This document shows positions 2,334 to 56,973 of a stretch of 57,774 bases of DNA, in pieces. The position numbers and the translations under genes were made by a program. The number at the start of each line of letters is the position of its first letter. Position 1 is the first letter of the stretch. The DNA lies in IMG/VR virus record IMGVR_UViG_3300025126_000736; one strand, 5' to 3'. The notes under the pieces were generated by a model, which worked only from the letters and a program-made list of their open reading frames with translations, had not been told where the DNA came from and did not search any database. This DNA is from an uncultured virus (IMG/VR IMGVR_UViG_3300025126_000736) (taxonomy: Duplodnaviria; Heunggongvirae; Uroviricota; Caudoviricetes).

Positions 2334-2885
2334 TTAAAACCCCGAAACATTAAGTTGAGTGTTATGTATACTGATTGCATTCAAAGCCTTATTTTGCTCT
2401 TCTAATGGCATTTGTGCTAGTAAAGATTTAATATCTTCACGCTGATATAGTAAGTGGCAAATATCATTTCGATGATTTAAGTACGCAACCTTAAGAGGGT
2501 TAAAATTAAATATAGCAGGAAACATTAAATTGTGTGAGAGTAATAATTCAACAAGAGTAGTGTTACCATTAGCACAAGCAGTAAGTAATGCAAAGTTATT
2601 ATTAAGGCTTGGATCAACACCCTTATATTTAAGAAGATATGATGCTGAATTATTTAAATTGTGCATTACAAGAGATTGAAAAATAATATTATTTTCCTTT
2701 ATAGTGAGTGACTTTGTAGACTTTAGGATATCAACTAATATATTATCAAAAGAAGTAAAACTGTGATATTGAGAAATAAATAAAATTATGGATGAAAAAA
2801 TATCATCATCAAATTTATTGTTAATAAATAATGAATGAATGAGGGATATCGGCTTTAAAGGATTTTCTTTAAAAATAGTTAACAT
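2334..2885 (-). CDS. Ankyrin-repeat protein
   Basis: VDPSLNNNFALLTACANGNTTLVELLL; ends LNVSGF. Confidence 0.75.
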   Translation of the reverse strand: MLTIFKENPLKPISLIHSLFINNKFDDDIFSSIILFISQYHSFTSFDNILVDILKSTKSLTIKENNIIFQSLVMHNLNNSASYLLKYKGVDPSLNNNFALLTACANGNTTLVELLLSHNLMFPAIFNFNPLKVAYLNHRNDICHLLYQREDIKSLLAQMPLEEQNKALNAISIHNTQLNVSGF

Positions 2886-2933
2886 AAAATTGCCATAGTG
2901 AAAATAATTAAGTCATTATACTATGTTTATGTT

Positions 2934-3785
2934 TTAAAAACAATTGATTTTTATTTTATTAATCACTGTGTTCTTTATATCATCCATTATTTTATTGTCA
3001 TTTTTAAGCTTCAAAATAAAGTCGTTATCAAATATTGGATCAAAAAAGCCACTAAATATAAAATTAAATAAAATGTTTTTTTCTATATGAGTATAAGTAA
3101 TAATTTTATTAAAAAGACCATTAAATATAAATAATAAATCATTTTTTGAGTAACTAAGTTTATTAAATAAATTATTTTTTTCATCGTGTAAAATAAAATG
3201 ATAAGCAGTGGAAAGTTTATTATTTTGATTAATATATTGTAAATATTTTGGTTCCTTAAGAATAATTTCTTTAAGTAGAGTTAAATTATAAGAGAATGCT
3301 ACATTAATATTAATGCTAATGTTTTCTTCTGTTTCTTGATCAAGTTTAAGAATAATTTCTTTTGGATCAGAATTAGCTTCGATGTGGACGATAGACTCTG
3401 TAAGCTTGGTAAGCCTAATGTAAAAGTAAAAGCTTTTTTCAATAAATGAATTATTTTCAATGTAATCTAAAAAATGTATATGAAGTCTGCTAATAACAGC
3501 CCTTGATGAAGGGATAGGGTATTCAGTTATTAGTTGTTCTTCACCATCGTGCATTCCGTAATATCGAGTTAAGTTTTTATTATAATGGTGTATTCTCCTG
3601 TATTTAGTTCTAGGTTGACTGTCATTAAACTCAAAACAAAGCGTGTTAATGTCAAACCCCATATTTTTTAAAATTTTTAAATTTTTCTCAAAAAATAGAA
3701 TAGTATCCCTTTGAAAGGAAAGTGGAATGCCAGAAAAATTGGCAATAATTTTATTTTCATAACGAATACTTGCAGAAATAGACAT
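2934..3785 (-). CDS. Hypothetical protein with C-terminal K-I-x-x-F motif
   Basis: 283-aa ORF with GGAG SD; ends IKINCF. Confidence 0.6.
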   Translation of the reverse strand: MSISASIRYENKIIANFSGIPLSFQRDTILFFEKNLKILKNMGFDINTLCFEFNDSQPRTKYRRIHHYNKNLTRYYGMHDGEEQLITEYPIPSSRAVISRLHIHFLDYIENNSFIEKSFYFYIRLTKLTESIVHIEANSDPKEIILKLDQETEENISININVAFSYNLTLLKEIILKEPKYLQYINQNNKLSTAYHFILHDEKNNLFNKLSYSKNDLLFIFNGLFNKIITYTHIEKNILFNFIFSGFFDPIFDNDFILKLKNDNKIMDDIKNTVINKIKINCF

Positions 3786-7145: not shown

Positions 7146-7826
7146 TTAAAAATCATTAATCTTATTTGATAAAAGTTTTGTTCTAAGTGACGGTATTGAG
7201 TTAATAAAATTAATATATTCTGCTGGTGAAAGTAAATAGAATGAATCAGGATTAATAAAGTGATTGTTAATGAAGCTGAGTTCTTCATTGTTGAAATTAT
7301 ATTGGTTTGTTATGAGATATTGCTGGTATATAAGTAAGTAAATGTCAAGAGTTGCTGGCTTTAACGAAAAAATACAAGAATAAAGATCTTTTACTGGCAT
7401 ATTTTTTGATAGAATAGATGAGAGTTCAAAAGAAATCTCATTTCTAGTATAGCAAATTTCTTTGGAATGCTTTGATGCTACTTTTTTAAAAAAAACTCTA
7501 TAAATATAGTGTGGAATGAAAAAAGTTAAAAAGAAGGTTTTCTTTGAACGTAATGCAATGATACATTCGGTTAACTCATTTAGGGAGTTGAGTTGGTTTT
7601 TAGGAAATTTAATAACAAAAAAACAAATGGATATTATATTTAAAGTGACTATATTGAGTATGAAATGTGAATAGGAAGTATTTAAATAAATAAAAATCAA
7701 GTTAATGAAAAAAGTAATGGATATTGTTAATATAATATGGGTAATTAAACACATGAATTTAAAGTTAATAAAGTTATTGTCGGCTAAAAAAAGAAGGCAC
7801 TCTTGTTTGTTTATAAATTTTGTCAT
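7146..7826 (-). CDS. Membrane protein with C-terminal K-I-x-x-F motif
   Basis: Two N-terminal TM segments; ends NKINDF. Confidence 0.55.
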   Translation of the reverse strand: MTKFINKQECLLFLADNNFINFKFMCLITHIILTISITFFINLIFIYLNTSYSHFILNIVTLNIISICFFVIKFPKNQLNSLNELTECIIALRSKKTFFLTFFIPHYIYRVFFKKVASKHSKEICYTRNEISFELSSILSKNMPVKDLYSCIFSLKPATLDIYLLIYQQYLITNQYNFNNEELSFINNHFINPDSFYLLSPAEYINFINSIPSLRTKLLSNKINDF

Positions 7827-8027: not shown

Positions 8028-8103
8028 TGGTGGGTGTGGAGGGATTCGAACCCACGACCTTCAGGTTAAAAGCCTGTTGCTCTACCAACTGAGCTACACA
8101 TCC
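8028..8103 (-). tRNA. tRNA-Lys(UUU), type A
   Basis: Cloverleaf GGATGTG...; anticodon arm ACAGG-CT-TTT-AA-CCTGA; encoded CCA. Confidence 0.95.
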
Positions 8104-8117
8104 AAAAAAAATAAAAC

Positions 8118-8193
8118 TGGTAGGCGCGGTGAGGTTCGAACTCACGACCAACTGGTTAAAAGCCAGATGCTCTACCAACTGAGCTACACGCCT
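8118..8193 (-). tRNA. tRNA-Lys(UUU), type B
   Basis: Cloverleaf AGGCGTG...; TCTGG-CT-TTT-AA-CCAGT; CCA. Confidence 0.95.
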
Positions 8194-8203
8194 AAAATAA
8201 AAC

Positions 8204-8279
8204 TGGTGGATGCGGTGGGGGTCGAACCCACGACCTTCAGGTTAAAAGCCTGTTGCTCTACCAACTGAGCTACACATCC
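8204..8279 (-). tRNA. tRNA-Lys(UUU), type A
   Basis: Tandem copy, TTT anticodon, CCA. Confidence 0.95.
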
Positions 8280-8293
8280 AAAAAAAATAAAAC

Positions 8294-8369
8294 TGGTAGG
8301 CGCGGTGAGGTTCGAACTCACGACCAACTGGTTAAAAGCCAGATGCTCTACCAACTGAGCTACACGCCT
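8294..8369 (-). tRNA. tRNA-Lys(UUU), type B
   Basis: Tandem copy, TTT anticodon, CCA. Confidence 0.95.
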
Positions 8370-8379
8370 AAAATAAAAC

Positions 8380-8455
8380 TGGTGGATGCGGTGGGGGTCG
8401 AACCCACGACCTTCAGGTTAAAAGCCTGTTGCTCTACCAACTGAGCTACACATCC
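8380..8455 (-). tRNA. tRNA-Lys(UUU), type A
   Basis: Tandem copy, TTT anticodon, CCA. Confidence 0.95.
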
Positions 8456-8468
8456 AAAAAAATAAAAC

Positions 8469-8544
8469 TGGTAGGCGTGGTGAGGTTCGAACTCACGACC
8501 AACTGGTTAAAAGCCAGATGCTCTACCAACTGAGCTACACGCCT
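8469..8544 (-). tRNA. tRNA-Lys(UUU), type B
   Basis: First Lys copy in transcription order, TTT anticodon, CCA. Confidence 0.95.
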
Positions 8545-8549
8545 AAAAT

Positions 8550-8581
8550 AAAAAACCCAAAGAAATATATATTCCTTTGGG
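8550..8581 (-). terminator. Attenuator-type intrinsic terminator directly 5' of the tRNA-Lys block
   Basis: CCCAAAGGAA-loop-TTTCTTTGGG-TTTTTT on the minus strand. Confidence 0.85.
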
Positions 8582-8634
8582 CTAAACAAAACACCTAAAG
8601 GCTACTTATTCGTAGCCTTTATATAGACTACTTT

Positions 8635-8673
8635 TTATGGTTTCTTTGATTTTTTAGATTTAAAAGTTTTCAT
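8635..8673 (-). CDS. Putative Lys-sensing leader peptide MKTFKSKKSKKP
   Basis: AAGGA SD; 6 of 12 codons Lys (5 AAA, 1 AAG); followed by alternative hairpins, a terminator and 6 tRNA-Lys. Confidence 0.75.
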   Translation of the reverse strand: MKTFKSKKSKKP

Positions 8674-8713
8674 TATATAGTTTCCTTAAATTTTGATTTA
8701 ATTTTATTAAAAT

Positions 8714-8778
8714 TGGTTGGGGTAGTAGGATTCGAACCTACGACTATTAAGCACTTTAACCGCCCAAGCTCTACCCCA
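8714..8778 (-). ncRNA. 65-nt tRNA-like RNA lacking a normal anticodon arm
   Basis: 7-bp acceptor TGGGGTA/TACCCCA, T-arm GTAGG-TTCGAAT-CCTAC, D-like arm, ACCA end; only 11 nt between D and T arms. Confidence 0.65.
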
Positions 8779-8797
8779 AATTGTGTTACATTAAAAC

Positions 8798-8872
8798 TGG
8801 CGGGGAAGGTAGGATTTGAACCTACGACCTATCGGTTAACAGCCGACTGCTCTACCACTGAGCTACATCCCC
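8798..8872 (-). tRNA. tRNA-Asn(GUU)
   Basis: GGGGATG... GTCGG-CT-GTT-AA-CCGAT ... G73-CCA. Confidence 0.95.
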
Positions 8873-8892
8873 AAATTGTGTTACATTAAAAC

Positions 8893-8967
8893 TGGCGGGG
8901 AAGGTAGGATTTGAACCTACGACCTATCGGTTAACAGCCGACTGCTCTACCACTGAGCTACATCCCC
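8893..8967 (-). tRNA. tRNA-Asn(GUU)
   Basis: Copy in 95-bp-period array. Confidence 0.95.
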
Positions 8968-8987
8968 AAATTGTGTTACATTGAAAC

Positions 8988-9062
8988 TGGCGGGGAAGGT
9001 AGGATTTGAACCTACGACCTATCGGTTAACAGCCGACTGCTCTACCACTGAGCTACATCCCC
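8988..9062 (-). tRNA. tRNA-Asn(GUU)
   Basis: Copy in 95-bp-period array. Confidence 0.95.
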
Positions 9063-9082
9063 AAATTATATTACATTAAAAC

Positions 9083-9157
9083 TGGCGGGGAAGGTAGGGC
9101 TTGAACCTACGACCTATCGACATATCACCGAGTGCTCTACCACTGAGCTACATCCCC
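9083..9157 (-). tRNA. tRNA-Asn-derived variant with non-canonical anticodon loop (UGAUAUG)
   Basis: Body near-identical to tRNA-Asn; anticodon arm CTCGG-TGATATG-TCGAT. Confidence 0.75.
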
Positions 9158-9177
9158 AAATTATATTACATTAAAAC

Positions 9178-9252
9178 TGGCGGGGAAGGTAGGGCTTGAA
9201 CCTACGACCTATCGACATATCACCGAGTGCTCTACCACTGAGCTACATCCCC
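9178..9252 (-). tRNA. tRNA-Asn-derived variant with non-canonical anticodon loop
   Basis: Same variant as 9083..9157. Confidence 0.75.
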
Positions 9253-9272
9253 AAATTGTATTACATTAAAAC

Positions 9273-9347
9273 TGGCGGGGAAGGTAGGACTTGAACCTAC
9301 GACCTATCGGTTAACAGCCGACTGCTCTACCACTGAGCTACATCCCC
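9273..9347 (-). tRNA. tRNA-Asn(GUU)
   Basis: GTT anticodon, CCA. Confidence 0.95.
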
Positions 9348-9367
9348 AAATTATATTACATTAAAAC

Positions 9368-9442
9368 TGGCGGGGAAGGTAGGGCTTGAACCTACGACCT
9401 ATCGACATATCACCGAGTGCTCTACCACTGAGCTACATCCCC
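9368..9442 (-). tRNA. tRNA-Asn-derived variant with non-canonical anticodon loop
   Basis: Same variant as 9083..9157. Confidence 0.75.
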
Positions 9443-9462
9443 AAATTATATTACATTAAAAC

Positions 9463-9537
9463 TGGCGGGGAAGGTAGGGCTTGAACCTACGACCTATCGA
9501 CATATCACCGAGTGCTCTACCACTGAGCTACATCCCC
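9463..9537 (-). tRNA. tRNA-Asn-derived variant with non-canonical anticodon loop
   Basis: Same variant as 9083..9157. Confidence 0.75.
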
Positions 9538-9557
9538 AAATTGTATTACATTAAAAC

Positions 9558-9632
9558 TGGCGGGGAAGGTAGGACTTGAACCTACGACCTATCGGTTAAC
9601 AGCCGACTGCTCTACCACTGAGCTACATCCCC
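9558..9632 (-). tRNA. tRNA-Asn(GUU)
   Basis: First copy in transcription order, GTT anticodon. Confidence 0.95.
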
Positions 9633-9639
9633 AAAATAT

Positions 9640-9677
9640 AAAAAAACCCAAAAACTTTATTAATTAGTCTTTGGGTT
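9640..9677 (-). terminator. Attenuator-type terminator directly 5' of the tRNA-Asn block
   Basis: AACCCAAAGACT-loop-AGTTTTTGGGTT-TTTTT. Confidence 0.85.
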
Positions 9678-9724
9678 GATAACAAAGACTGCGATTTCGT
9701 TTCGCAGTCAAAAAAGAAACTGCG

Positions 9725-9769
9725 CTAAATATTTAAATTTCGTTTATTATTCTTATTAAGTGTTTTCAT
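9725..9769 (-). CDS. Putative Asn(/Lys)-sensing leader peptide MKTLNKNNKRNLNI
   Basis: TAAGGT SD; 5 AAT codons and 3 Lys codons in 14; followed by alternative hairpins and a terminator. Confidence 0.7.
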   Translation of the reverse strand: MKTLNKNNKRNLNI

Positions 9770-9814
9770 TTTTTTAGTTACCTTATATGTTTGTTGTCTT
9801 GCTTTATGTTTTAC

Positions 9815-9843
9815 ATTATTACACGTTAATTTAAGTCTGTCAA
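9815..9843 (-). promoter_or_regulatory. Sigma70-type inner promoter of the Asn/Lys tRNA operon
   Basis: TTGACA-17 bp-(TGT)AATAAT; IHF-like ATTCAAACACTTA at 9870..9882. Confidence 0.7.
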
Positions 9844-9921
9844 GCTTTTTTTAAAAATATTTTCAATTAATTCAAACACTTAAAAAAAATAAAAGAGTAG
9901 TGTCGATAATTAAAACGCAAT

Positions 9922-9954
9922 AAAAAACCTCTTAAAATTTCTTCCAAGAGGTTT
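9922..9954 (-). terminator. Terminator of outer Asn attenuator
   Basis: AAACCTCTTGGAA-loop-TTTTAAGAGGTTT-TTT. Confidence 0.75.
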
Positions 9955-10002
9955 AGAGTAAACGACTTGGAAGTTTTGGCTCCCAAGTATTGTTTTTTTA
10001 TT

Positions 10003-10080
10003 TTACAAAAGACAATAGGAAGTCATAACAATATTTTTATTGTTATTTATCTTATTATTTTTTGAAAAACTAAATGACAT
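10003..10080 (-). CDS. Putative outer Asn(/Lys)-sensing leader peptide MSFSFSKNNKINNNKNIVMTSYCLL
   Basis: TAAGGGT SD; KNNKINNNKN run; followed by alternative hairpins and a terminator. Confidence 0.7.
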   Translation of the reverse strand: MSFSFSKNNKINNNKNIVMTSYCLL

Positions 10081-10111
10081 AATGTTACCCTTATTTATTA
10101 AACTTAACTAT

Positions 10112-10140
10112 ATTATATATGACGAAAAAAATAAAGTCAA
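10112..10140 (-). promoter_or_regulatory. Sigma70-type outer promoter of the Asn/Lys tRNA operon
   Basis: TTGACT-17 bp-TATAAT. Confidence 0.75.
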
Positions 10141-10154
10141 CACAAAAAAACTAA

Positions 10155-10460
10155 TTAATTAAAATCCGATAGATTTTTTTTACCAAAAATTACGAATTCT
10201 ACATTACTGATAATGCTTGGTAACAGATTTTTTAAATTTGACTTAACAATAAGTGTGAAAAGTGCGCGTTGCTCATTTGAAACATCCATTAATGAAATTA
10301 AAGCATCATCCATCCGACTATGATCTTTTTCTTCATGATGATTATTAACATAATTAAGTGAGGTTAATAATCGAAGCCAATTAATCTGCTCATTACGATA
10401 AGAAGCATGAGAAAACACAGTACGAACAACTTGATTAATTTCAGTGTTTTTATTTAACAT
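10155..10460 (-). CDS. Hypothetical protein with C-terminal N-L-x-x-F(N) motif
   Basis: AAGGA SD; ends KNLSDFN. Confidence 0.55.
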   Translation of the reverse strand: MLNKNTEINQVVRTVFSHASYRNEQINWLRLLTSLNYVNNHHEEKDHSRMDDALISLMDVSNEQRALFTLIVKSNLKNLLPSIISNVEFVIFGKKNLSDFN

Positions 10461-10514: not shown

Positions 10515-10889
10515 TTATTTAAAAATAGAAAAATTGAATTTTTCTGCAAGAATGCGCAATATAAATTTAAACTTATATAAGAATAAAGCTGGAAGTGAAA
10601 ATGGAATAATAAAAGCTAATATACCTAAAATAAATGATATAGTTCCTGTAATATCATCACTAATTATAAAGTATTTAAAAACATTGGCTATTAATGTATT
10701 ACTAACAGTGCTAAGTAAAGTGCCTAAATAAAAAGAAATTAGACAGCTTGCGGAAAATCCAATGATGGAAATAAAGTAAACCATTGAATATTCTTTTACT
10801 TTAATAAAAAGTTCTGGCTTAATTTTTGATAATGCTAAAAGGCATAAACTTATTGATATAAAGAGAACGGTAAGAAATTTAATAATCAT
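10515..10889 (-). CDS. Small membrane protein
   Basis: Three hydrophobic segments from MIIKFL (start moved from 11009). Confidence 0.5.
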   Translation of the reverse strand: MIIKFLTVLFISISLCLLALSKIKPELFIKVKEYSMVYFISIIGFSASCLISFYLGTLLSTVSNTLIANVFKYFIISDDITGTISFILGILAFIIPFSLPALFLYKFKFILRILAEKFNFSIFK

Positions 10890-10902
10890 CAGTTTTTTCC
10901 TA

Positions 10903-11085
10903 TTACGCCTTAGAAGAATCTTGGATGTGACTCTTTTTATTGTCAATATTTTTTCGCTTTTTATCTTGAAAAACGGCACTTTTAAAATTATGAACAAGAT
11001 CGTAGGCAATAGAGTTTCTTGCAGAACCTTTTATTTTTTCTGCTTTTGCCAATTCTTCTTTATTAAAAACCTTAGTTTTAGACAT
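10903..11085 (-). CDS. Small basic protein, weak ArfA-like pattern
   Basis: KG..RN.IA.DL..NF...V..DKK pattern, by eye. Confidence 0.35.
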   Translation of the reverse strand: MSKTKVFNKEELAKAEKIKGSARNSIAYDLVHNFKSAVFQDKKRKNIDNKKSHIQDSSKA

Positions 11086-22445: not shown

Positions 22446-23978
22446 ATGATAATGCAAAAAAGCAAAAGTAATGATGAGCAATATTACGTTTATGTCCAAG
22501 ACATAGATGGAACTCCGCTTATGCCGACCAAACGTTTTCGCAAAGTGAGACTTTTATTAAAAAAAGGTGAGGCGAAAGTCGTTTCTTACGATCCTTTCAC
22601 CATTAAAATGCTTTATAATGTAGGGAAAGAAGTTCAGACGCTTAATTTGGGCATTGATACAGGCACATCAAATATTGGCGTTTCTGTCACAACAAACGAA
22701 GGTAAAGAATTACTTTCTTCTACATTTAAAACAAACACATTAAAGATAAAAGGCACTATGGAAAAACGCCTTTCCCATAGACACACAAGAACACGATTCA
22801 AACGAGAAAAGAAAAAACGTAGAGCTATTGCTAATAACACTCATTTTAAGGGTGTTAAAGAATTTATGGCCTATGGCGCAAAAACCACAACAAAATACAA
22901 AGTAATTCGTTCTTCAATTTGTCGTTTAGAAAAGAAAGTTAAACATGGCAAGTTATCAAATACCGCGCAACATTGCCTTGATAATCACATCAATGTAGTC
23001 AACAAAATAAAGAAAATATTACCCATTAAAAACGTAATGGTAGAATATGCTTCATTCGATCTTCATAAGTTAATTAACCCCAATGTGAAAGGCGTTGATT
23101 ATCAAAAAGGGGCGCTCTATAATGAATTAAATCATAAATCTTATGTATTGAATAGAGATGGGCATACTTGTGTTTTGTGTAACAAAAGAAAAAAAGATGA
23201 GCTTGTCGAAGTGCATCATGTTATTTATAGATCTAATGGAGGTGCAGATCATTTTAATAATCTGGTCACTTTACACAGTGAATGTCATAAAAAAGTGCAT
23301 AATGATGTTAAAATAGAGGAAAATCTTTTTAACATAATTAAACAGAAAGATATTTTAAAAGAGACGATTCAAACAAAACAAGCCACTATTTTAAACAGTA
23401 TTATGTCACGATTTTTTCTATTTTTACATAATAATTTTGAATATGTAGAAGAAACTTTTGGTTATGAAACAAAAGCAAAACGTTATGAATACGGGATTGA
23501 TAAATCGCATAGTAATGATGCATTTGTTATTTCCTTTGGCAATAATAAGCCCAAAAAATTAAGTCGTGCGATAGAAATTGAATACGAACAATTTGCCAAT
23601 AACAAGCGTGTATTCATTTATGCAACGACAAAAAGAAGGTATACTACCACTATTGATGGTAAAAAAGTCACTGTTTATAATCGAAAAAAAGCAATGAACC
23701 AAAAAGAAGATTCTCTTGAAGAGTTTAGAGAAAAATACACTCAAAAACACGTTTCTCAACTAAAAGTATTGAAAGGTACAGTTAAGTTTCAAAATCGGTC
23801 AAATTATTCGTTTGAAAAGGGAGATTTGGTCAAGCTCAATGGAAAACTAAGGGTAATTTCAGGCAATACCAATAACGGAAGGTATGTAAGACTGAAAAAT
23901 GAGGGAGCAACTAATTTCAGCCCTAAAGAGTTAACAATGCTTAACCCTCGCCAAAATTTTAGAAGGATTAATTGGTAA
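22446..23978 (+). CDS. iscB: RNA-guided endonuclease IscB
   Basis: PLMP motif (GTPLMPT), RuvC-I GIDTG, Arg-rich bridge helix, RuvC-II VEYASFD, HNH CxxC...HH...NNL...CH, RuvC-III SHSNDA. Confidence 0.95.
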   Translation: MIMQKSKSNDEQYYVYVQDIDGTPLMPTKRFRKVRLLLKKGEAKVVSYDPFTIKMLYNVGKEVQTLNLGIDTGTSNIGVSVTTNEGKELLSSTFKTNTLKIKGTMEKRLSHRHTRTRFKREKKKRRAIANNTHFKGVKEFMAYGAKTTTKYKVIRSSICRLEKKVKHGKLSNTAQHCLDNHINVVNKIKKILPIKNVMVEYASFDLHKLINPNVKGVDYQKGALYNELNHKSYVLNRDGHTCVLCNKRKKDELVEVHHVIYRSNGGADHFNNLVTLHSECHKKVHNDVKIEENLFNIIKQKDILKETIQTKQATILNSIMSRFFLFLHNNFEYVEETFGYETKAKRYEYGIDKSHSNDAFVISFGNNKPKKLSRAIEIEYEQFANNKRVFIYATTKRRYTTTIDGKKVTVYNRKKAMNQKEDSLEEFREKYTQKHVSQLKVLKGTVKFQNRSNYSFEKGDLVKLNGKLRVISGNTNNGRYVRLKNEGATNFSPKELTMLNPRQNFRRINW

Positions 23979-24461: not shown

Positions 24462-24549
24462 TGGCAGAAGGTGTGAGATTCGAACTCACGGAGGAGTAAC
24501 CCTCGCTGATTTTCAAGACCAATGCCATAAACCGCTCGGCCAACCTTCT
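24462..24549 (-). tRNA. tRNA-Ser(UGA)
   Basis: Long variable arm; CT-TGA-AA loop; GCCA. Confidence 0.9.
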
Positions 24550-24554
24550 AAATT

Positions 24555-24630
24555 TGGGGTGAATGACGGGACTCGAACCCGCAACCATCTGGATCACAAC
24601 CAGAAGCTCTGCCATTGAGCTACAAGCACC
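24555..24630 (-). tRNA. tRNA-His(GUG)
   Basis: G-1/C73; TT-GTG-AT loop; two acceptor mismatches. Confidence 0.85.
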
Positions 24631-24644
24631 ATTGTGTGTAAATC

Positions 24645-24686
24645 TGGTGAAAAGGGAGGCCACTTAAACCACTCATGCACCTTTCC
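24645..24686 (-). pseudogene. Internally deleted tRNA-Ser (acceptor plus D arm only)
   Basis: Deletion between repeated CCTCCCT segments. Confidence 0.8.
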
Positions 24687-24700
24687 AAAATATATAAAAC

Positions 24701-24790
24701 TGGAGGAAGATAAGGGATTCGAACCCTTGTGCCGATCACTCGACCAACTGTTTTCAAGACAGAGCTAATAAGCCACTCTAGCAATCTTCC
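24701..24790 (-). tRNA. tRNA-Ser(UGA)
   Basis: GGAAGAT acceptor; CT-TGA-AA loop; long variable arm. Confidence 0.9.
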
Positions 24791-24808
24791 AAAATATGTA
24801 ACTAAATT

Positions 24809-24899
24809 TGGTGGAAAGGGAGGGATTCGAACCCTCGTGCCGATTTCTCGACTCACTCCTTAGTAGGGAGGCCATTTAAGCCAGCTCATGCACCTTTCC
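24809..24899 (-). tRNA. tRNA-Ser(ACU), A34 variant of Ser(GCU)
   Basis: CCTCC-CT-ACT-AA-GGAGT; otherwise identical to 25022..25112. Confidence 0.8.
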
Positions 24900-24913
24900 A
24901 AAATATATAAAAC

Positions 24914-25003
24914 TGGAGGAAGATAAGGGATTCGAACCCTTGTGCCGATCACTCGACCAACTGTTTTCAAGACAGAGCTAATAAGCCACTCTAGCAATCT
25001 TCC
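24914..25003 (-). tRNA. tRNA-Ser(UGA)
   Basis: CT-TGA-AA loop; long variable arm. Confidence 0.9.
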
Positions 25004-25021
25004 AAAATATGTAACTAAATT

Positions 25022-25112
25022 TGGTGGAAAGGGAGGGATTCGAACCCTCGTGCCGATTTCTCGACTCACTCCTTAGCAGGGAGGCCATTTAAGCCAGCTC
25101 ATGCACCTTTCC
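25022..25112 (-). tRNA. tRNA-Ser(GCU)
   Basis: CT-GCT-AA loop; long variable arm. Confidence 0.9.
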
Positions 25113-25126
25113 AAAATATATAAAAC

Positions 25127-25216
25127 TGGAGGAAGATAAGGGATTTGAACCCTCGTGCCGATTTCTCGACCATCTGTTTTCCAAACAGAGCTAATAAGCC
25201 ACTCTAGCAATCTTCC
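25127..25216 (-). tRNA. tRNA-Ser(GGA)
   Basis: TT-GGA-AA loop. Confidence 0.85.
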
Positions 25217-25234
25217 AAAATATGTAATTAAATC

Positions 25235-25324
25235 TGGTGGAAAGGGAGGGATTCGAACCCTCGTGCCGATTTCTCGACTCACTCCTTAGCAGGGAGGCCA
25301 CTTAAACCACTCATGCACCTTTCC
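25235..25324 (-). tRNA. tRNA-Ser(GCU)
   Basis: CT-GCT-AA loop. Confidence 0.9.
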
Positions 25325-25338
25325 AAAATATATAAAAC

Positions 25339-25428
25339 TGGAGGAAGATAAGGGATTTGAACCCTTGTGCCGATTTCTCGACCATCTGTTTTCCAAACAG
25401 AGCTAATAAGCCACTCTAGCAATCTTCC
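25339..25428 (-). tRNA. tRNA-Ser(GGA)
   Basis: TT-GGA-AA loop. Confidence 0.9.
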
Positions 25429-25446
25429 AAAATATGTAATTAAATC

Positions 25447-25488
25447 TGGTGGAAAGGGAGGCCACTTAAACCACTCATGCACCTTTCC
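25447..25488 (-). pseudogene. Internally deleted tRNA-Ser (acceptor plus D arm only)
   Basis: Same deletion as 24645..24686. Confidence 0.8.
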
Positions 25489-25502
25489 AAAATATATAAA
25501 AC

Positions 25503-25592
25503 TGGAGGAAGATAAGGGATTTGAACCCTTGTGCCGATCACTCGACCAACTGTTTTCAAGACAGAGCTAATAAGCCACTCTAGCAATCTTCC
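25503..25592 (-). tRNA. tRNA-Ser(UGA)
   Basis: CT-TGA-AA loop. Confidence 0.9.
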
Positions 25593-25606
25593 AAAATATG
25601 TAAATC

Positions 25607-25694
25607 TGGCAGAAGATGTGAGATTCGAACTCACGGAGGAGTAACCCTCGCTGGGTTTCAAGACCAGTGCCATAAACCGCTCGGCCAATCTTCT
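25607..25694 (-). tRNA. tRNA-Ser(UGA)
   Basis: AGAAGAT acceptor; CT-TGA-AA loop; GCCA. Confidence 0.88.
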
Positions 25695-25699
25695 AAATT

Positions 25700-25775
25700 T
25701 GGGGTGCATGACGGGACTCGAACCCGCAACCATCTGGATCACAACCAGAAGCTCTGCCATTGAGCTACAAACACC
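25700..25775 (-). tRNA. tRNA-His(GUG)
   Basis: G-1/C73; TT-GTG-AT loop. Confidence 0.9.
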
Positions 25776-25789
25776 ATTGTATGTAAATA

Positions 25790-25880
25790 TGGTGGAAAGG
25801 GAGGGATTCGAACCCTCGTGCCGATTTTTCGGCTCACTCCTTAGCAGGGAGGCCATTTAAGCCATCTCATGCACCCTTCC
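25790..25880 (-). tRNA. tRNA-Ser(GCU)
   Basis: First in transcription order; CT-GCT-AA loop. Confidence 0.9.
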
Positions 25881-25890
25881 AAAATTTCAT

Positions 25891-25926
25891 AAAAAACCCT
25901 CTTTAAGTGTAACCTAAAGAGGGTTT
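25891..25926 (-). terminator. Attenuator-type terminator directly 5' of the Ser/His tRNA block
   Basis: AAACCCTCTTTAGG-loop-CTTAAAGAGGGTTT-TTT. Confidence 0.88.
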
Positions 25927-25976
25927 CTTTAAGGTTAGTTTATCAATGACAAACTAACCTATATAGAGGTAGTCTA

Positions 25977-26039
25977 TCAAATATGTTTGCTACTCGAATG
26001 TAGCGAATAAGCGCTGTAATGTGAATTAATGTTTTTCAT
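25977..26039 (-). CDS. Putative Ser/His-sensing leader peptide MKNINSHYSAYSLHSSSKHI
   Basis: AAGGT SD; 6 Ser and 3 His codons in 20; followed by alternative hairpins and a terminator. Confidence 0.82.
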   Translation of the reverse strand: MKNINSHYSAYSLHSSSKHI

Positions 26040-26081
26040 TTTAGTTAATACCTTTTAGTGTGTGTCTCTATTATGTTTAAC

Positions 26082-26110
26082 ATTATGTCATGTAAAAATC
26101 ATTATGTCAA
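26082..26110 (-). promoter_or_regulatory. Sigma70-type inner promoter of the Ser/His tRNA operon
   Basis: TTGACA-17 bp-(TGA)CATAAT; IHF consensus match AATCAATGACTTA at 26137..26149. Confidence 0.75.
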
Positions 26111-26190
26111 TAGTTTTTTTAAATATTTTTCAATTAAATCAATGACTTAAAATAAAAATAGCATTACCCCTCATTAATAAAAAAATGCAT

Positions 26191-26223
26191 AAAAAAAACC
26201 TTGAAGTTTTGCCTTCAAGGTTT
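26191..26223 (-). terminator. Terminator of outer Ser/His attenuator
   Basis: AAACCTTGAAG-loop-CTTCAAGGTTT-TTTTT. Confidence 0.85.
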
Positions 26224-26280
26224 AAAATTGCAATAATTTTATGTTGAAGGCTTGTCTTGACAAACCTTCGTAAACGAAGT

Positions 26281-26364
26281 TTAAGTTTGCATTAGACATA
26301 GGAAAACGGAACTAGAAGAACTAGAACTCGAATGACTATGTGAATGTGCTTTAAAATTAAACAT
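26281..26364 (-). CDS. Putative outer Ser/His-sensing leader peptide MFNFKAHSHSHSSSSSSSSVFLCLMQT
   Basis: AAGGCG SD; 13 consecutive His/Ser codons using mixed Ser codons (TCA, AGT, TCG, TCT, TCC); hairpins and a terminator follow. Confidence 0.85.
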   Translation of the reverse strand: MFNFKAHSHSHSSSSSSSSVFLCLMQT

Positions 26365-26405
26365 TTTTTATTCGCCTTTTTAATTTAATTATTTATAATA
26401 TTTAC

Positions 26406-26434
26406 ATTGTAATATAGTTATTTAAAAATATCAA
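26406..26434 (-). promoter_or_regulatory. Sigma70-type outer promoter of the Ser/His tRNA operon
   Basis: TTGATA-17 bp-TACAAT. Confidence 0.65.
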
Positions 26435-26441
26435 GCTTTTT

Positions 26442-34023: not shown

Positions 34024-34713
34024 TTACTTCTTCATGTAACTTGGTTTAGTATTGCTATTTAGTTCACCATTTTTTTCAACATTTTTAAGCCAATGTTCTG
34101 AATTGATCTGAACGTGATCTTTTCTAACCCATTTTGCTAAATATTTCGTTGAGTCTTCACGCCTAAACCCCTTGACAGTGCGAACAACAAAACCTTCCAT
34201 AACGTCAGTGTCAATATTTGCAGCCAATTCTTTAAGAATTTTTTCAGAATATATTCCGCGATACAATACTTTTGGTGTAGGCAAATCAAGTTTATTTGCA
34301 TATTCAATAATAGAATCATAATCCAAACAAAAATCAGTCCCGTCTTCAAGATCTTGCCATACTGAAAATAAGTAAAAGTAGCCTTCTAAATAGTTGTCTG
34401 GGTAGCCTATTGTGTGTTTACCCCATAGGTTCTCACCGACTAACTTAATGTCATTGGGGATTAAAAATCGCATACAAGAATGCATAGTGGCGACCCAAGA
34501 TCGAGTGAAATTATAGACGCTATCAAGCGAACGAGCATGATATCCATCAGTGTAACAAGTAGTGCATTCACCATCTAATTTTTCACTTACAACAACTTCT
34601 TCGTCTTCGAAATATTCAAGTGTTTCGATAATCTTGTCATCAGATTGAACACCTTGACTATAAGGGAGATGGTATGATCTAATGTATTTTATTTTAATTG
34701 CTGACTGTTCCAT
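34024..34713 (-). CDS. RNA ligase family nucleotidyltransferase
   Basis: Motif I SEKLDGE, GEN, EGFVVR, KWVRKDHVQ. Confidence 0.85.
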   Translation of the reverse strand: MEQSAIKIKYIRSYHLPYSQGVQSDDKIIETLEYFEDEEVVVSEKLDGECTTCYTDGYHARSLDSVYNFTRSWVATMHSCMRFLIPNDIKLVGENLWGKHTIGYPDNYLEGYFYLFSVWQDLEDGTDFCLDYDSIIEYANKLDLPTPKVLYRGIYSEKILKELAANIDTDVMEGFVVRTVKGFRREDSTKYLAKWVRKDHVQINSEHWLKNVEKNGELNSNTKPSYMKK

Positions 34714-52571: not shown

Positions 52572-54143
52572 TTAAAACTTAAAGCCTTCTTCGTTTAATA
52601 TTTTTTTTATTTCTTTTTCTGAATTATTATAATCTTCTATTGATAAATTGAAGTCATTTAGTATTTCCCTATAATTTAAACAAGCATCTTCTACCATTTT
52701 TTTTAATGAAATTATTTTAGTAATATCTTCATCAAAACATTCGCTTCCTCCATTTATATCTTTCATTATATGGAACATCGGCTTTCTTTGTTTTGAAAAC
52801 GTTTTTAATATCCAATACTCTGATAGTAAACTTTGTATATTTTTTAATTTAAGTGTGGTTTGGTTTATGATTTTAATTCCATTGTTTTTTAATTTTATAC
52901 TTGAGTACCTACTATTGACTCCTCTATGAGTTAATCCTATTTTGTAAAAAATTTTACCCTTAAATTGAAATGTGATATAATAAAGTATTCTATCTTTTTG
53001 AAATTGTTTTGTTTTTGTTAAGCACTTTTTTAAATCTTGCCCTTCTATTGAGCATTTTGGACAACCTCCTCCATTATTTAACTTATGTATAGTGGGGTTC
53101 CATTTTTTTTCAAAAAAATCTCCAATACCATGAACTTCGCACTTCATTATGCATTTTGAGTGAACTGTTTTGTATCCTTCTACAAATCCAATGACTTCAT
53201 ATTTTTTAGAAACATTATCTTTTAAACGTTCTAATGCTTCATTTTCTGTATATCTGTATAAGCCTAAACATTTAGGGCACCCCTTGGATTTTTTTAAACT
53301 ATTTATTGTTGGGAGCCAAGGATTGCCCCATTCAGAGGAGTTTCCATGCACTTTACACTCAACAATACATTTGGTTTGCATATTGTTATTTTTGCCAACA
53401 AAAGATAATGCTTTTATTTTTTTATTATTTAATTGCTTATTTAAACACGCTACTGTTTCTTTTAATATTTTTGTATTACTTTTGCGTGTGCCATATAATT
53501 TATTGCATTTGGGGCATTGTTGTCCATGTTTTAATTGGGATAAGCTAGGAGTCCAAGGAATTCCCCATTTAGAGCTGTCACCATGTATTATGCACTCCAT
53601 TATGCATTTTGATTGCAAATTTTTAAATTTACCACCAATAAACCTTAAAAATAAATATTTGCCTTTTATTGTCTGATTTAAGTCAGATAAAGCTTCTTGA
53701 TCTGTTTGTTTGTAATTTCCATAACATTTAGGACAACCATGACCTTTTTTCAATGTATCAAAATATGGAATCCAAGGATTTCCCCATTTAGAACTGTCTC
53801 CATGAATGCTACAATTTAAAATAACGGCATATTTTTTTTGTTCTTTTTTAATACTTAGTACAGAAAGATTATTAGAAAGATATTTTTTTAATTCTGCTCT
53901 TAATTCTCTTTCTGATTTTACATATCGATTTGAGCATTTAGGACAGCCTGAACCATATCTTAAATTGTCAAATGTTGGAGTCCAAGGTGTATCCCATCCT
54001 AAACCATTTCCATGTATTTTGCATATAATTGAACATTTTGAGTGAATATTTTTATATTCAGACTCAAGAAATCCTACAACGGTATAGTCATCGTTTATGA
54101 TTTTATTGAGTTCTATTATTTTTTCACTACTAATTTCGTTCAT
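52572..54143 (-). CDS. Zn-ribbon repeat protein with C-terminal GIY-YIG/T5orf172-like nuclease domain
   Basis: Five C..HG...W.P....L....CPKC repeats; LYYITF...YKIGLT...RY...E...GGSECF. Confidence 0.7.
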   Translation of the reverse strand: MNEISSEKIIELNKIINDDYTVVGFLESEYKNIHSKCSIICKIHGNGLGWDTPWTPTFDNLRYGSGCPKCSNRYVKSERELRAELKKYLSNNLSVLSIKKEQKKYAVILNCSIHGDSSKWGNPWIPYFDTLKKGHGCPKCYGNYKQTDQEALSDLNQTIKGKYLFLRFIGGKFKNLQSKCIMECIIHGDSSKWGIPWTPSLSQLKHGQQCPKCNKLYGTRKSNTKILKETVACLNKQLNNKKIKALSFVGKNNNMQTKCIVECKVHGNSSEWGNPWLPTINSLKKSKGCPKCLGLYRYTENEALERLKDNVSKKYEVIGFVEGYKTVHSKCIMKCEVHGIGDFFEKKWNPTIHKLNNGGGCPKCSIEGQDLKKCLTKTKQFQKDRILYYITFQFKGKIFYKIGLTHRGVNSRYSSIKLKNNGIKIINQTTLKLKNIQSLLSEYWILKTFSKQRKPMFHIMKDINGGSECFDEDITKIISLKKMVEDACLNYREILNDFNLSIEDYNNSEKEIKKILNEEGFKF

Positions 54144-56307: not shown

Positions 56308-56973
56308 TTAAGAAGGATAACCTTCTATAACGCTAGTCCAATCATTAAGCCTATCATTTGAACTATTTTTAAAGACGAACATATCTTTACGTCTAATTTT
56401 ACACATTCTTCCATCTGGATGATGAAAAACAATACCTTCTACATAATTATTAAATAACCATTTTTTTATACCGTCATAGGTGAGTAAAATATCATTAATT
56501 TCCTCTGCACCGTGTGGGACTAATTTGTGGCCTTTAATATTATAAATATTATTCTGAACTTTTTCTCCAATAAGCTCGTAGGTTGCACCCTCAATAAGAA
56601 CAGGATGTAAACTTAATGCTTCTTGGAACCATCTATCCTCTGGACTATCCGTTACTTCTACCCAAAAAGGCTGGTGAAAGGTAATAGGATCAGGTAATTG
56701 ACAAGCAATAGCACCTAATGGTAAATCTTTAAACATATGATCTTCTATTGCAAGTTTTCCACCTAATCGTTTATTCTTAAGTGAAAACTTTTTGCGCAAT
56801 TTGCGATCAAATCGTTTATGTAATTTTCCATTAAGAAAAATAGCTGCGGTACCGTCAATTTTAACGGTTGCCTTACCTTCTCCATTAATAGCCCATTGAC
56901 ACTCTTCTCGAACAATCTCTGTAACAAGATTAGTGTCATAGTTCATTTCAAACAATGTTTTCATTTTCTTCAT
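56308..56973 (-). CDS. RNA-ligase-like nucleotidyltransferase (DUF5565-like)
   Basis: TVKIDGT, TYELIG, EGIVF, KIRRKD. Confidence 0.75.
   Translation of the reverse strand: MKKMKTLFEMNYDTNLVTEIVREECQWAINGEGKATVKIDGTAAIFLNGKLHKRFDRKLRKKFSLKNKRLGGKLAIEDHMFKDLPLGAIACQLPDPITFHQPFWVEVTDSPEDRWFQEALSLHPVLIEGATYELIGEKVQNNIYNIKGHKLVPHGAEEINDILLTYDGIKKWLFNNYVEGIVFHHPDGRMCKIRRKDMFVFKNSSNDRLNDWTSVIEGYPS

Follow-up and report, generated by a model that had tools for sequence, protein, structure and literature searches.

The Asn/Lys tRNA Operon and Its Internal Leader

A 57,774-nt stretch of DNA from an uncultured virus assigned to Caudoviricetes (IMG/VR record IMGVR_UViG_3300025126_000736), referred to below as the window, carries on its minus strand an operon of tRNA genes for Asn and Lys. 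The subject of this analysis is a short leader inside this operon, which consists of a Lys-rich open reading frame (ORF), L3, with its ribosome-binding site, and of a chain of overlapping hairpins ending in an intrinsic terminator. This Lys leader is the third gate of the operon and is placed between the Asn and Lys blocks, while two other leaders, L1 and L2, lie in series at the operon head. The following features were identified, listed in the direction of transcription.

10112-10140, minus strand: distal promoter P1 of the Asn/Lys operon, matching the sigma-70 consensus at 11/12 positions
10003-10080, minus strand: distal leader ORF L1, 25 codons with 6 Asn and 3 Lys (Asn plus Lys 9/24, P = 0.022)
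9925-9954, minus strand: terminator T1 after L1, a 13-pair stem followed by a T run (region fold z −5.9)
9815-9875, minus strand: proximal promoter cassette P2, consisting of a conserved upstream motif (9838-9875) and a promoter (9815-9843, 11/12 with extended −10)
9725-9769, minus strand: proximal leader ORF L2, 14 codons with 5 Asn and 3 Lys (Asn plus Lys 8/13, P = 6.8e-4)
9638-9724, minus strand: L2 switch, with helices A:B (−10.2 kcal/mol), B:C (−12.5), C:D (−7.6) and terminator D:E (−14.0) and a seven-T run, 5 nt before tRNA-Asn
8798-9632, minus strand: Asn block of five tRNA-Asn genes and four Asn-like variants with an aberrant anticodon loop (ARAGORN, Rfam)
8717-8778, minus strand: tRNA-like remnant of 62 nt directly 5' of the Lys leader (Rfam tRNA match of 38.7 bits, no ARAGORN call)
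8683-8687, minus strand: purine-rich ribosome-binding site of L3, 9 nt 5' of the start codon, read from the sequence
8635-8673, minus strand: internal Lys leader ORF L3, 12 codons with 6 Lys and 0 Asn (P = 2.3e-4)
8625-8631, minus strand: segment A, pairing with B, 6 to 12 nt past the first base of the stop codon
8612-8620, minus strand: segment B
8594-8605, minus strand: segment C
8574-8581, minus strand: segment D
8556-8563, minus strand: segment E
8596-8621, minus strand: B:C hairpin (anti-antiterminator), 10 pairs, −14.7 kcal/mol
8574-8605, minus strand: C:D antiterminator pairing, −7.5 kcal/mol (p = 0.023 versus shuffles)
8550-8583, minus strand: terminator D:E with a 13-pair stem (8583-8554, −15.2 kcal/mol) and a six-T run (8555-8550); tRNA-Lys starts 5 nt on
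8028-8544, minus strand: Lys block of six tRNA-Lys (UUU) genes of two alternating types (ARAGORN; Rfam 70 to 74 bits)

L3 extends from 8673 to 8635, with the start codon at 8673-8671 and the stop codon at 8637-8635. Its 12 codons encode Met, six Lys (five AAA and one AAG), Thr, Phe, two Ser and Pro. An original prediction, made from the sequence without database searches, had described this ORF and its ribosome-binding site as the head of a Lys-specific checkpoint, and both are present exactly to the base. Lys accounts for 6 of the 11 codons after the start, compared to 9.5% across the 63 long ORFs of the window (13,428 codons), which corresponds to the binomial P given above. The enrichment is thus significant against the window's own usage, which answers the reservation, made in the same prediction, that AAA codons are common in this genome. 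The strongest enrichment in a single residue among the 108 small ATG frames preceded by a ribosome-binding site (875 small ATG frames were found in the window) was that of L3. The spacing and type of its ribosome-binding site are those seen before 43 of 62 long ORFs, while bacterial-type sites were detected at 12% of random positions; since such sites are general in the window, coupled translation of the leader is plausible.

Cognate residues are enriched in all five leaders of the window, two of which precede the Asn/Lys operon in series, one lies inside it and two precede a Ser/His array; P values range from 0.022 to 2.8e-7.

Two peculiarities of the tRNA genes themselves were observed. The four Asn-like variants (9083-9157, 9178-9252, 9368-9442 and 9463-9537, minus strand) combine an Asn body with a rewritten anticodon loop lacking the usual U33; ARAGORN classifies them as tRNA-Tyr with anticodon ATA, and Rfam gives them 53 bits, while true Asn genes score 75 to 77. 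These variants may be tRNA-like molecules without a decoding function, possibly acting as decoys or representing decayed copies. The 62-nt remnant at 8778-8717 may likewise be a decayed copy from the array, or it may serve as a handle by which processing releases the leader RNA.

Helices of the Predicted Switch

The five segments, the six-T run and the 5-nt gap to tRNA-Lys lie exactly where the original prediction had listed them, and the four overlapping helices on which it relied all exist. The energies of A:B, B:C, C:D and D:E are −8.2, −14.7, −7.5 and −15.2 kcal/mol, respectively; since consecutive helices overlap, neighbouring ones are mutually exclusive. The 156-nt leader stretch folds better than its shuffled versions (z −3.3; 1 of 200 shuffles was equally good), and each of the three helices 5' of the terminator exceeds what is found with shuffled upstream sequence (p = 0.023, 0.007 and 0.027). 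The corresponding three helices of L2 also beat the shuffles (p ≤ 0.01 for each). The same four-helix chain was found in the proximal leaders L2 and S2 of the window, where it is built from sequences unlike those of the Lys leader; three paralogous leaders with different helix sequences indicate that the segments have changed in concert.

Toeprinting places the leading edge of a terminating ribosome about 12 nt beyond the A-site codon. Segment A, which an automated search located at stop+7 to +12, is within the reach of such a ribosome, and the fold obtained with A masked, as for a ribosome at the stop codon, consists of B:C and the terminator. In the nascent chain transcribed through D, the combination of A:B and C:D (−15.7 kcal/mol) is as stable as B:C (−14.7 kcal/mol), or even slightly more so, in keeping with the hairpin logic; for L2, the respective values are −17.8 and −12.5 kcal/mol. 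The barrier for conversion of A:B into B:C was estimated at 8.5 kcal/mol for the Lys leader, and at 8.5 to 9.5 kcal/mol when L2 is included. On these modelled energies, kinetic control of read-through looks feasible.

Related Arrays in Marine Metagenomes

A search with the P2 cassette motif revealed 26 loci in metagenome contigs, and in 22 of them tRNA genes begin no more than 700 nt downstream; the isotype-sorted arrays come from marine contigs of up to 100 kb. Among the rest, L003, L011 and L012 lack an array over that distance, and in L028 it is about 720 nt away. The arrays of these relatives are sorted by isotype (Leu; His/Ser; Gly/Cys; Asn then Lys; Tyr; Gln/Pro/Trp; Thr/Ala/Arg; Met), and small frames with a ribosome-binding site, in distal, proximal or internal position, are rich in the residues of the isotypes downstream. 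The residue match between leader and array, calculated for the best candidate frame per region over 26 distinct, not fully independent regions (from the window and the 26 metagenome loci), averaged 0.403 versus 0.166 ± 0.028 after re-pairing, and none of 10,000 re-pairings reached the observed value. A codon-matched leader and a terminator precede an isotype-matched tRNA block in 5/5 window leaders and in eight isotype groups of relatives, and the concern about common AAA codons is further answered by this match.

Four of the 26 regions contained no matching leader. Two of them are the proximal regions of Leu loci, from P2 to a tRNA-like gene of 99 nt (match 0.05 and 0.15), one is a gap in a Gly/Cys array (0.08), and one is a 329-nt gap in a marine Asn block (0.0). 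One locus, L015, does not fit the pattern: with 41.5% GC and a mixed Tyr-Gly-Thr set, it is probably a bacterial tRNA operon of the usual kind.

Three marine contigs (L009, L017 and L026) share the order found in the window: P1, a distal Asn/Lys leader, a terminator, P2 and a proximal leader. The proximal leader has 5 Lys and 4 Asn among 15 codons and is followed by five Asn-type genes, a 170-nt gap and nine tRNA-Lys genes. The gap accommodates a 16-codon leader with 5 Lys and 0 Asn and a terminator of 12 pairs with a nine-T run, which immediately precedes the first Lys gene. The helices of this leader (A:B −8.2, B:C −10.9, C:D −5.8 and D:E −16.8 kcal/mol) form the same chain, with A and B sequences unlike those of the window, and in the nascent chain A:B plus C:D reaches −14.0 versus −10.9 kcal/mol for B:C. 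The three contigs differ from each other at 3 positions, namely a synonymous Lys codon, another leader codon and a terminator-loop base, with no change in a stem. Between the window and the marine lineage, the terminator stem shows an exchange of A-U to G-C, as read from the alignment.

Several features of the marine arrays are unusual in their own right. An odd Asn-type gene with an apparent 9-nt loop, judged by eye, stands just before the Lys leader (L009 4062-4137). The ends of the 329-nt gap in the Asn block (L009 4219-4549, minus strand; also in L017 and L026) resemble two tRNA halves, so that it may be a tRNA gene with an intron-like insertion. Genes of 95 to 99 nt that resemble tRNAs, and whose anticodons are called as four-base or stop-reading, occur 5' of the Leu leader on the P1 side of it, either past P2 or ahead of P1, at the following places.

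L004 4503-4601, L016 5438-5536, L027 5433-5531, L025 5438-5535, L014 4563-4657 and L016 4365-4463: tRNA-like genes of 95-99 nt

The Gly/Cys and Met arrays (L018 4793-5130; L006 4840-5100) have a distal leader only, which is Gly/Cys-rich in the former and a 6-codon frame with 2 Met in the latter, and the first tRNA follows P2 with no proximal leader between them; not all arrays therefore have two tiers. In L006 (plus strand: 632-718, 989-1033, 1158-2462 and 2484-3746), a seryl-tRNA synthetase gene begins 22 nt past a His/Ser array that has both leaders. This position directly behind the array suggests that the leaders may gate the synthetase as well as the tRNAs. The L006 cassette is slightly unlike the search pattern, and the locus counts obtained with the exact pattern are therefore lower bounds. 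A Cas1 gene (L008 8221-9111) was found on a contig carrying a Gly/Cys array of this lineage.

Searches in other collections returned nothing comparable. Neither the P2 motif nor an exact 36-mer of tRNA-Lys had a match in the viral contigs of IMG/VR. The two matches of the P2 motif in species genomes were taken as due to chance, since neither locus has a tRNA gene. The flanking ORFs 7146-7826 and 10515-11009 have no relatives in viral contigs, and a search of 5.8 billion proteins with ORF 7146-7826 returned a fragment of itself as the sole match. When the leaders were compared with GenBank phages by blastn, all hits were to tRNAs or were chance matches in AT-rich sequence; a weakly matching 462-kb phage record was rejected, having neither a tRNA nor a leader at the matched place.

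A Probable Nested Attenuator and Its Alternatives

The sequence thus contains a short ORF with a ribosome-binding site, an enrichment in cognate codons and a terminator directly before tRNA-Lys, and folding calculations add a mutually exclusive antiterminator with an upstream segment A that depends on the ribosome position. On this basis, we interpret the element as a transcription attenuator of the ribosome-mediated, leader-peptide type that is nested in a tRNA operon, with serial gating, and assign to this reading a probability of about 0.72. The six spare tRNA-Lys genes would probably be made only when Lys codons are read slowly.

A host-type RNA polymerase would start at P2, and also at P1 upon read-through of T1, pass the Asn/Lys-coded L2, transcribe the Asn block and enter the Lys leader without an intervening terminator or promoter. 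A ribosome would then load onto the nascent leader. While charged tRNA-Lys is plentiful, it would proceed to the stop codon and cover segment A, whereupon B:C and D:E would form and transcription would terminate at the T run before tRNA-Lys; in this default state, the inner terminator would double as the end of the Asn unit. If Lys decoding is slow, the ribosome would stall at codon 5, 7, 8 or 10, leaving A free to pair with B and C free to hold D. With C:D formed, the terminator would not arise and the six tRNA-Lys genes would be transcribed. We infer a supply-on-demand loop in which the quantity sensed is the product itself. The Asn block would respond to a shortage of Asn or Lys, while the Lys block would need both an open upstream gate and a shortage of Lys. 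The system could serve to match the supply of tRNAs to the demand of an AT-rich genome, or to make good those lost to host nucleases.

The original prediction further held that Lys tRNAs are made only if the upstream attenuator is passed, and that no clear promoter lies in the approximately 25 nt between the upstream tRNA-like gene and the ribosome-binding site. As to the latter, no promoter-like site scoring at least 9/12 was found on the minus strand between 8795 and 8680, P1 and P2 both scoring 11/12, while the gap between the remnant and the ribosome-binding site proved to be 29 nt long. Serial gating is supported by five points: no promoter at the leader; no terminator-like site listed between the Asn block and the Lys leader in the terminator scan; the terminator-to-tRNA-Lys gap of 5 nt, which leaves no room for a promoter and makes the Lys genes reachable only via read-through; Lys codons also in both upstream leaders, L1 and L2, the internal leader having Lys without Asn; and the conservation of the arrangement in the marine contigs. 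Nothing aligning with the P2 cassette was found upstream of the Lys leader in the window, and the cassette is absent there in the marine lineage too; the upstream motif of P2 has 2 matches in the window, each before a tRNA array, with 0.03 expected by chance. A strict version, in which no other route exists, goes further than the sequence shows, since a weak cryptic promoter may be present.

Several results weigh against the proposed mechanism. The full-length minimum-energy structure is the terminator fold at every ribosome position tested, and is better than the antiterminated fold by about 14 kcal/mol, so that read-through must be under kinetic control; it is likewise kinetic in classical attenuators. 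In the automated helix-chain test, which uses crude boundary rules, all three helices reached p < 0.05 in 7/11 leaders, and at least one step failed in 4/11 (S2 of the window, the marine Lys leader, L005 and L023). For the marine Lys leader none of the three steps was significant (p = 0.18, 0.38 and 0.23), its helices emerging only after the regions had been set by hand. L2 holds just 3 Lys in 13 codons. A hexamer resembling a −10 element overlaps the Lys leader's start codon in both lineages (window 8678-8672; L009 4037-4032); a weak promoter there could yield untranslated transcripts, or the hexamer could be a by-product of an AT-rich spacer. Parts of the region 8400-10400 were found in 24 public runs, all labelled as aquifer metagenomes and 4 of them RNA, but contigs of three RNA runs and one DNA run compared with 8460-8900 left 8565-8699 uncovered, most of the matching pieces being tRNA parts of other organisms.

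The hexamer is an argument for regarding the element as a real attenuator that heads an independent Lys unit, transcribed from a weak promoter in the remnant or the spacer without serial gating. The marine contig scanned for promoters carries, besides the same hexamer, a promoter-like hit of 9/12 upstream of the Lys leader. However, a transcript starting about 7 nt past the hexamer would begin within the ORF and thereby lose the ribosome-binding site and the start codon. Hits of 9/12 occur at chance frequency in that contig (10 found versus 8.8 expected), with none before the leader in the window, and the true promoters, with their 11/12 scores and conserved cassette, have no counterpart at the Lys leader in either lineage. 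We therefore consider an independent unit unlikely.

It is improbable, too, that the switch senses a general failure of translation (ribosome shortage, host shut-off or antibiotics) and not the decoding of Lys specifically. Such a role would agree with the number of segments: with five and not six, an untranslated leader should be read through (A:B plus C:D) and not super-attenuated. A precedent of a kind is a cyanobacterial tRNA array that is reportedly induced by translational stress (PMC8421152, PMC10272220). Yet a general sensor would not need codon identity, while the leaders track isotypes in 5/5 cases in the window and in eight isotype groups, and the internal leader has Lys without Asn in both lineages.

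That the hairpin is a constitutive terminator ending the Asn operon, with the ORF having arisen by chance in an AT-rich spacer and the tRNA-Lys genes being expressed otherwise or not at all, agrees with the terminator fold being the stable state, but is highly improbable in view of the six intact tRNA-Lys genes (70 to 74 bits) located 5 nt behind it with no room for a promoter, the Lys enrichment (P = 2.3e-4), the conservation of the arrangement in the marine contigs and the same design in the sister leaders.

The Sister Ser/His Array

A second system of the same type, for Ser and His, is located elsewhere in the window.

24462-26440, minus strand: sister system for Ser/His, comprising a distal leader, terminator, P2 cassette, proximal leader, switch and tRNA array
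26281-26364, minus strand: distal leader, with 10 Ser and 3 His of 26
26105-26142, minus strand: P2 cassette with the same motif as the Asn/Lys P2
25977-26039, minus strand: proximal leader, with 6 Ser and 3 His of 19
24462-25880, minus strand: tRNA array, with a two-tier head like that of the Asn/Lys operon

This array contains a tRNA-Ser with anticodon ACT, one base from GCT (24809-24899, minus strand), and also, at about 25440-25490 and 24650-24700 on the same strand, two tRNA-Ser fragments with internal deletions. The odd anticodon and the deleted fragments are signs of fast turnover via tandem duplication.

Gene Content of the Window

The GC content of the window ranges from 26 to 36%, and sigma-70-type promoters and intrinsic terminators are used. 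Most of the ORFs match no family. The recognisable genes encode an anaerobic ribonucleotide reductase and its activase, adenylate kinase, two RNA ligases, RNase H, homing-type endonucleases, a TnpB fragment, ankyrin and Sel1 repeat proteins and a cation efflux protein. The ribonucleotide reductase NrdD is closest to those of large T4-like phages, with 61% identity; no capsid, portal or terminase genes were seen among the family matches of the window's ORFs. Judging from this gene content, the likeliest carrier would be a large phage.

Homing-type endonuclease genes lie beside tRNA arrays both in the window (22446-23978, plus strand; 52572-54143, minus strand) and in the relatives (L027 6453-7727 and 7999-9522; L025 6587-8086; L004 2249-3751). 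The tandem tRNA arrays of the window could have grown by amplification driven by such endonucleases.

The two RNA ligase genes (34024-34713 and 56308-56973, minus strand) match Pfam RNA_ligase and RLIG1 and PHROG RNA ligase families, and fit the repair of cleaved tRNAs and a conflict with host tRNA nucleases. One could hypothesise, tentatively and with the odds against it, an isotype-resolved, demand-driven tRNA network in an uncultured large phage-like element, with a sensor for each tRNA block and nested logic, in which Asn genes would be made on shortage of Asn or Lys and Lys genes on shortage of Lys only, and the Lys gate would act as an inducible counter to host anticodon nucleases, detecting the depletion of tRNA-Lys that they cause and supplying replacements. 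The presence of the two ligases fits the tRNA-conflict part of this proposal.

Comparison with Known Regulatory Systems

In the leader-peptide attenuators of enterobacteria (trp, his, leu, thr, ilv and pheA), a codon-rich translated leader is followed by overlapping hairpins and an intrinsic terminator; the position of the ribosome picks the fold, and multi-segment chains exist, as in his. The Lys leader resembles them in its short codon-rich ORF, its alternative hairpins, its intrinsic terminator and a fold that would be chosen by the ribosome. Unlike them, it has five segments, not four or six, lies inside an operon behind tRNA genes, and would control tRNA genes and not biosynthetic enzymes, so that the molecule sensed would be the product. 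With six tRNA-Lys genes behind its terminator, it falls outside the classical scope of the family, which covers genes of amino-acid biosynthesis or synthetases. At the gathering score, Rfam gave only tRNA matches across the whole window and no Trp-, His-, Leu- or Thr-type leader family or T-box; within 8540-8800, nothing besides the tRNA remnant was detected at E < 0.03.

The pheST operon of E. coli carries a leader-peptide attenuator on the phenylalanyl-tRNA synthetase genes that is read out via charged tRNA. The Lys gate is similar in that a component of the translation apparatus would be attenuated, but differs in acting on tRNA genes and not on a synthetase at the head of an operon; one marine relative does, however, have a seryl-tRNA synthetase gene directly behind its leader-gated array for His and Ser. 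The E. coli tRNA-Phe gene pheV was checked as a precedent for such a leader and rejected: its promoter runs straight into the tRNA. T-box riboswitches bind uncharged tRNA directly and have no ORF, and tandem copies of them give serial gating. The Lys leader would likewise sense tRNA status and choose between terminator and antiterminator, but it possesses a translated frame and has no T-box match.

As for tRNA arrays, those of cyanobacteria, represented by the trn operon of Anabaena, are reported to be silent by default and induced by translational stress (PMC8421152, PMC10272220), the array being, as the title of PMC10272220 indicates, under the transcriptional repressor TrcR. The text of PMC8421152 contains no mention of "attenuat-", leader, terminator or small ORF. 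Both kinds are arrays of spare tRNAs, but the cyanobacterial arrays mix isotypes, while those of the window are sorted by isotype.

Phage tRNA genes have been reported to offset tRNA cleavage by host defences (PMC10264068, PMC11464382), and a homing endonuclease to drive tandem amplification of a phage tRNA-Tyr gene that overcomes a tRNA-cleaving defence (PMC13096335). The window, too, has tandem-repeat arrays and nearby endonuclease genes. In their titles and abstracts, these accounts (PMC10264068, PMC11464382, PMC13096335) mention no leader-peptide sensing or regulation of phage tRNAs. A full-text literature search, with most subscription journals outside its coverage, returned no account of leader-peptide attenuation of tRNA genes.

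Implications

For decades, it has been disputed why phages possess tRNA genes. A leader composed of the very codons decoded by the tRNAs behind it implies that the element would measure decoding speed isotype by isotype and produce tRNAs on demand. Classical attenuation would thereby be extended to a case in which what is regulated is also what is sensed. The internal Lys gate suggests, moreover, that such sensors may be chainable within one transcript, providing hierarchical control. The P2 cassette offers a practical handle on these systems, since one motif retrieved arrays of eight isotype groups from marine metagenomes, and the idea is testable with ordinary reporters.

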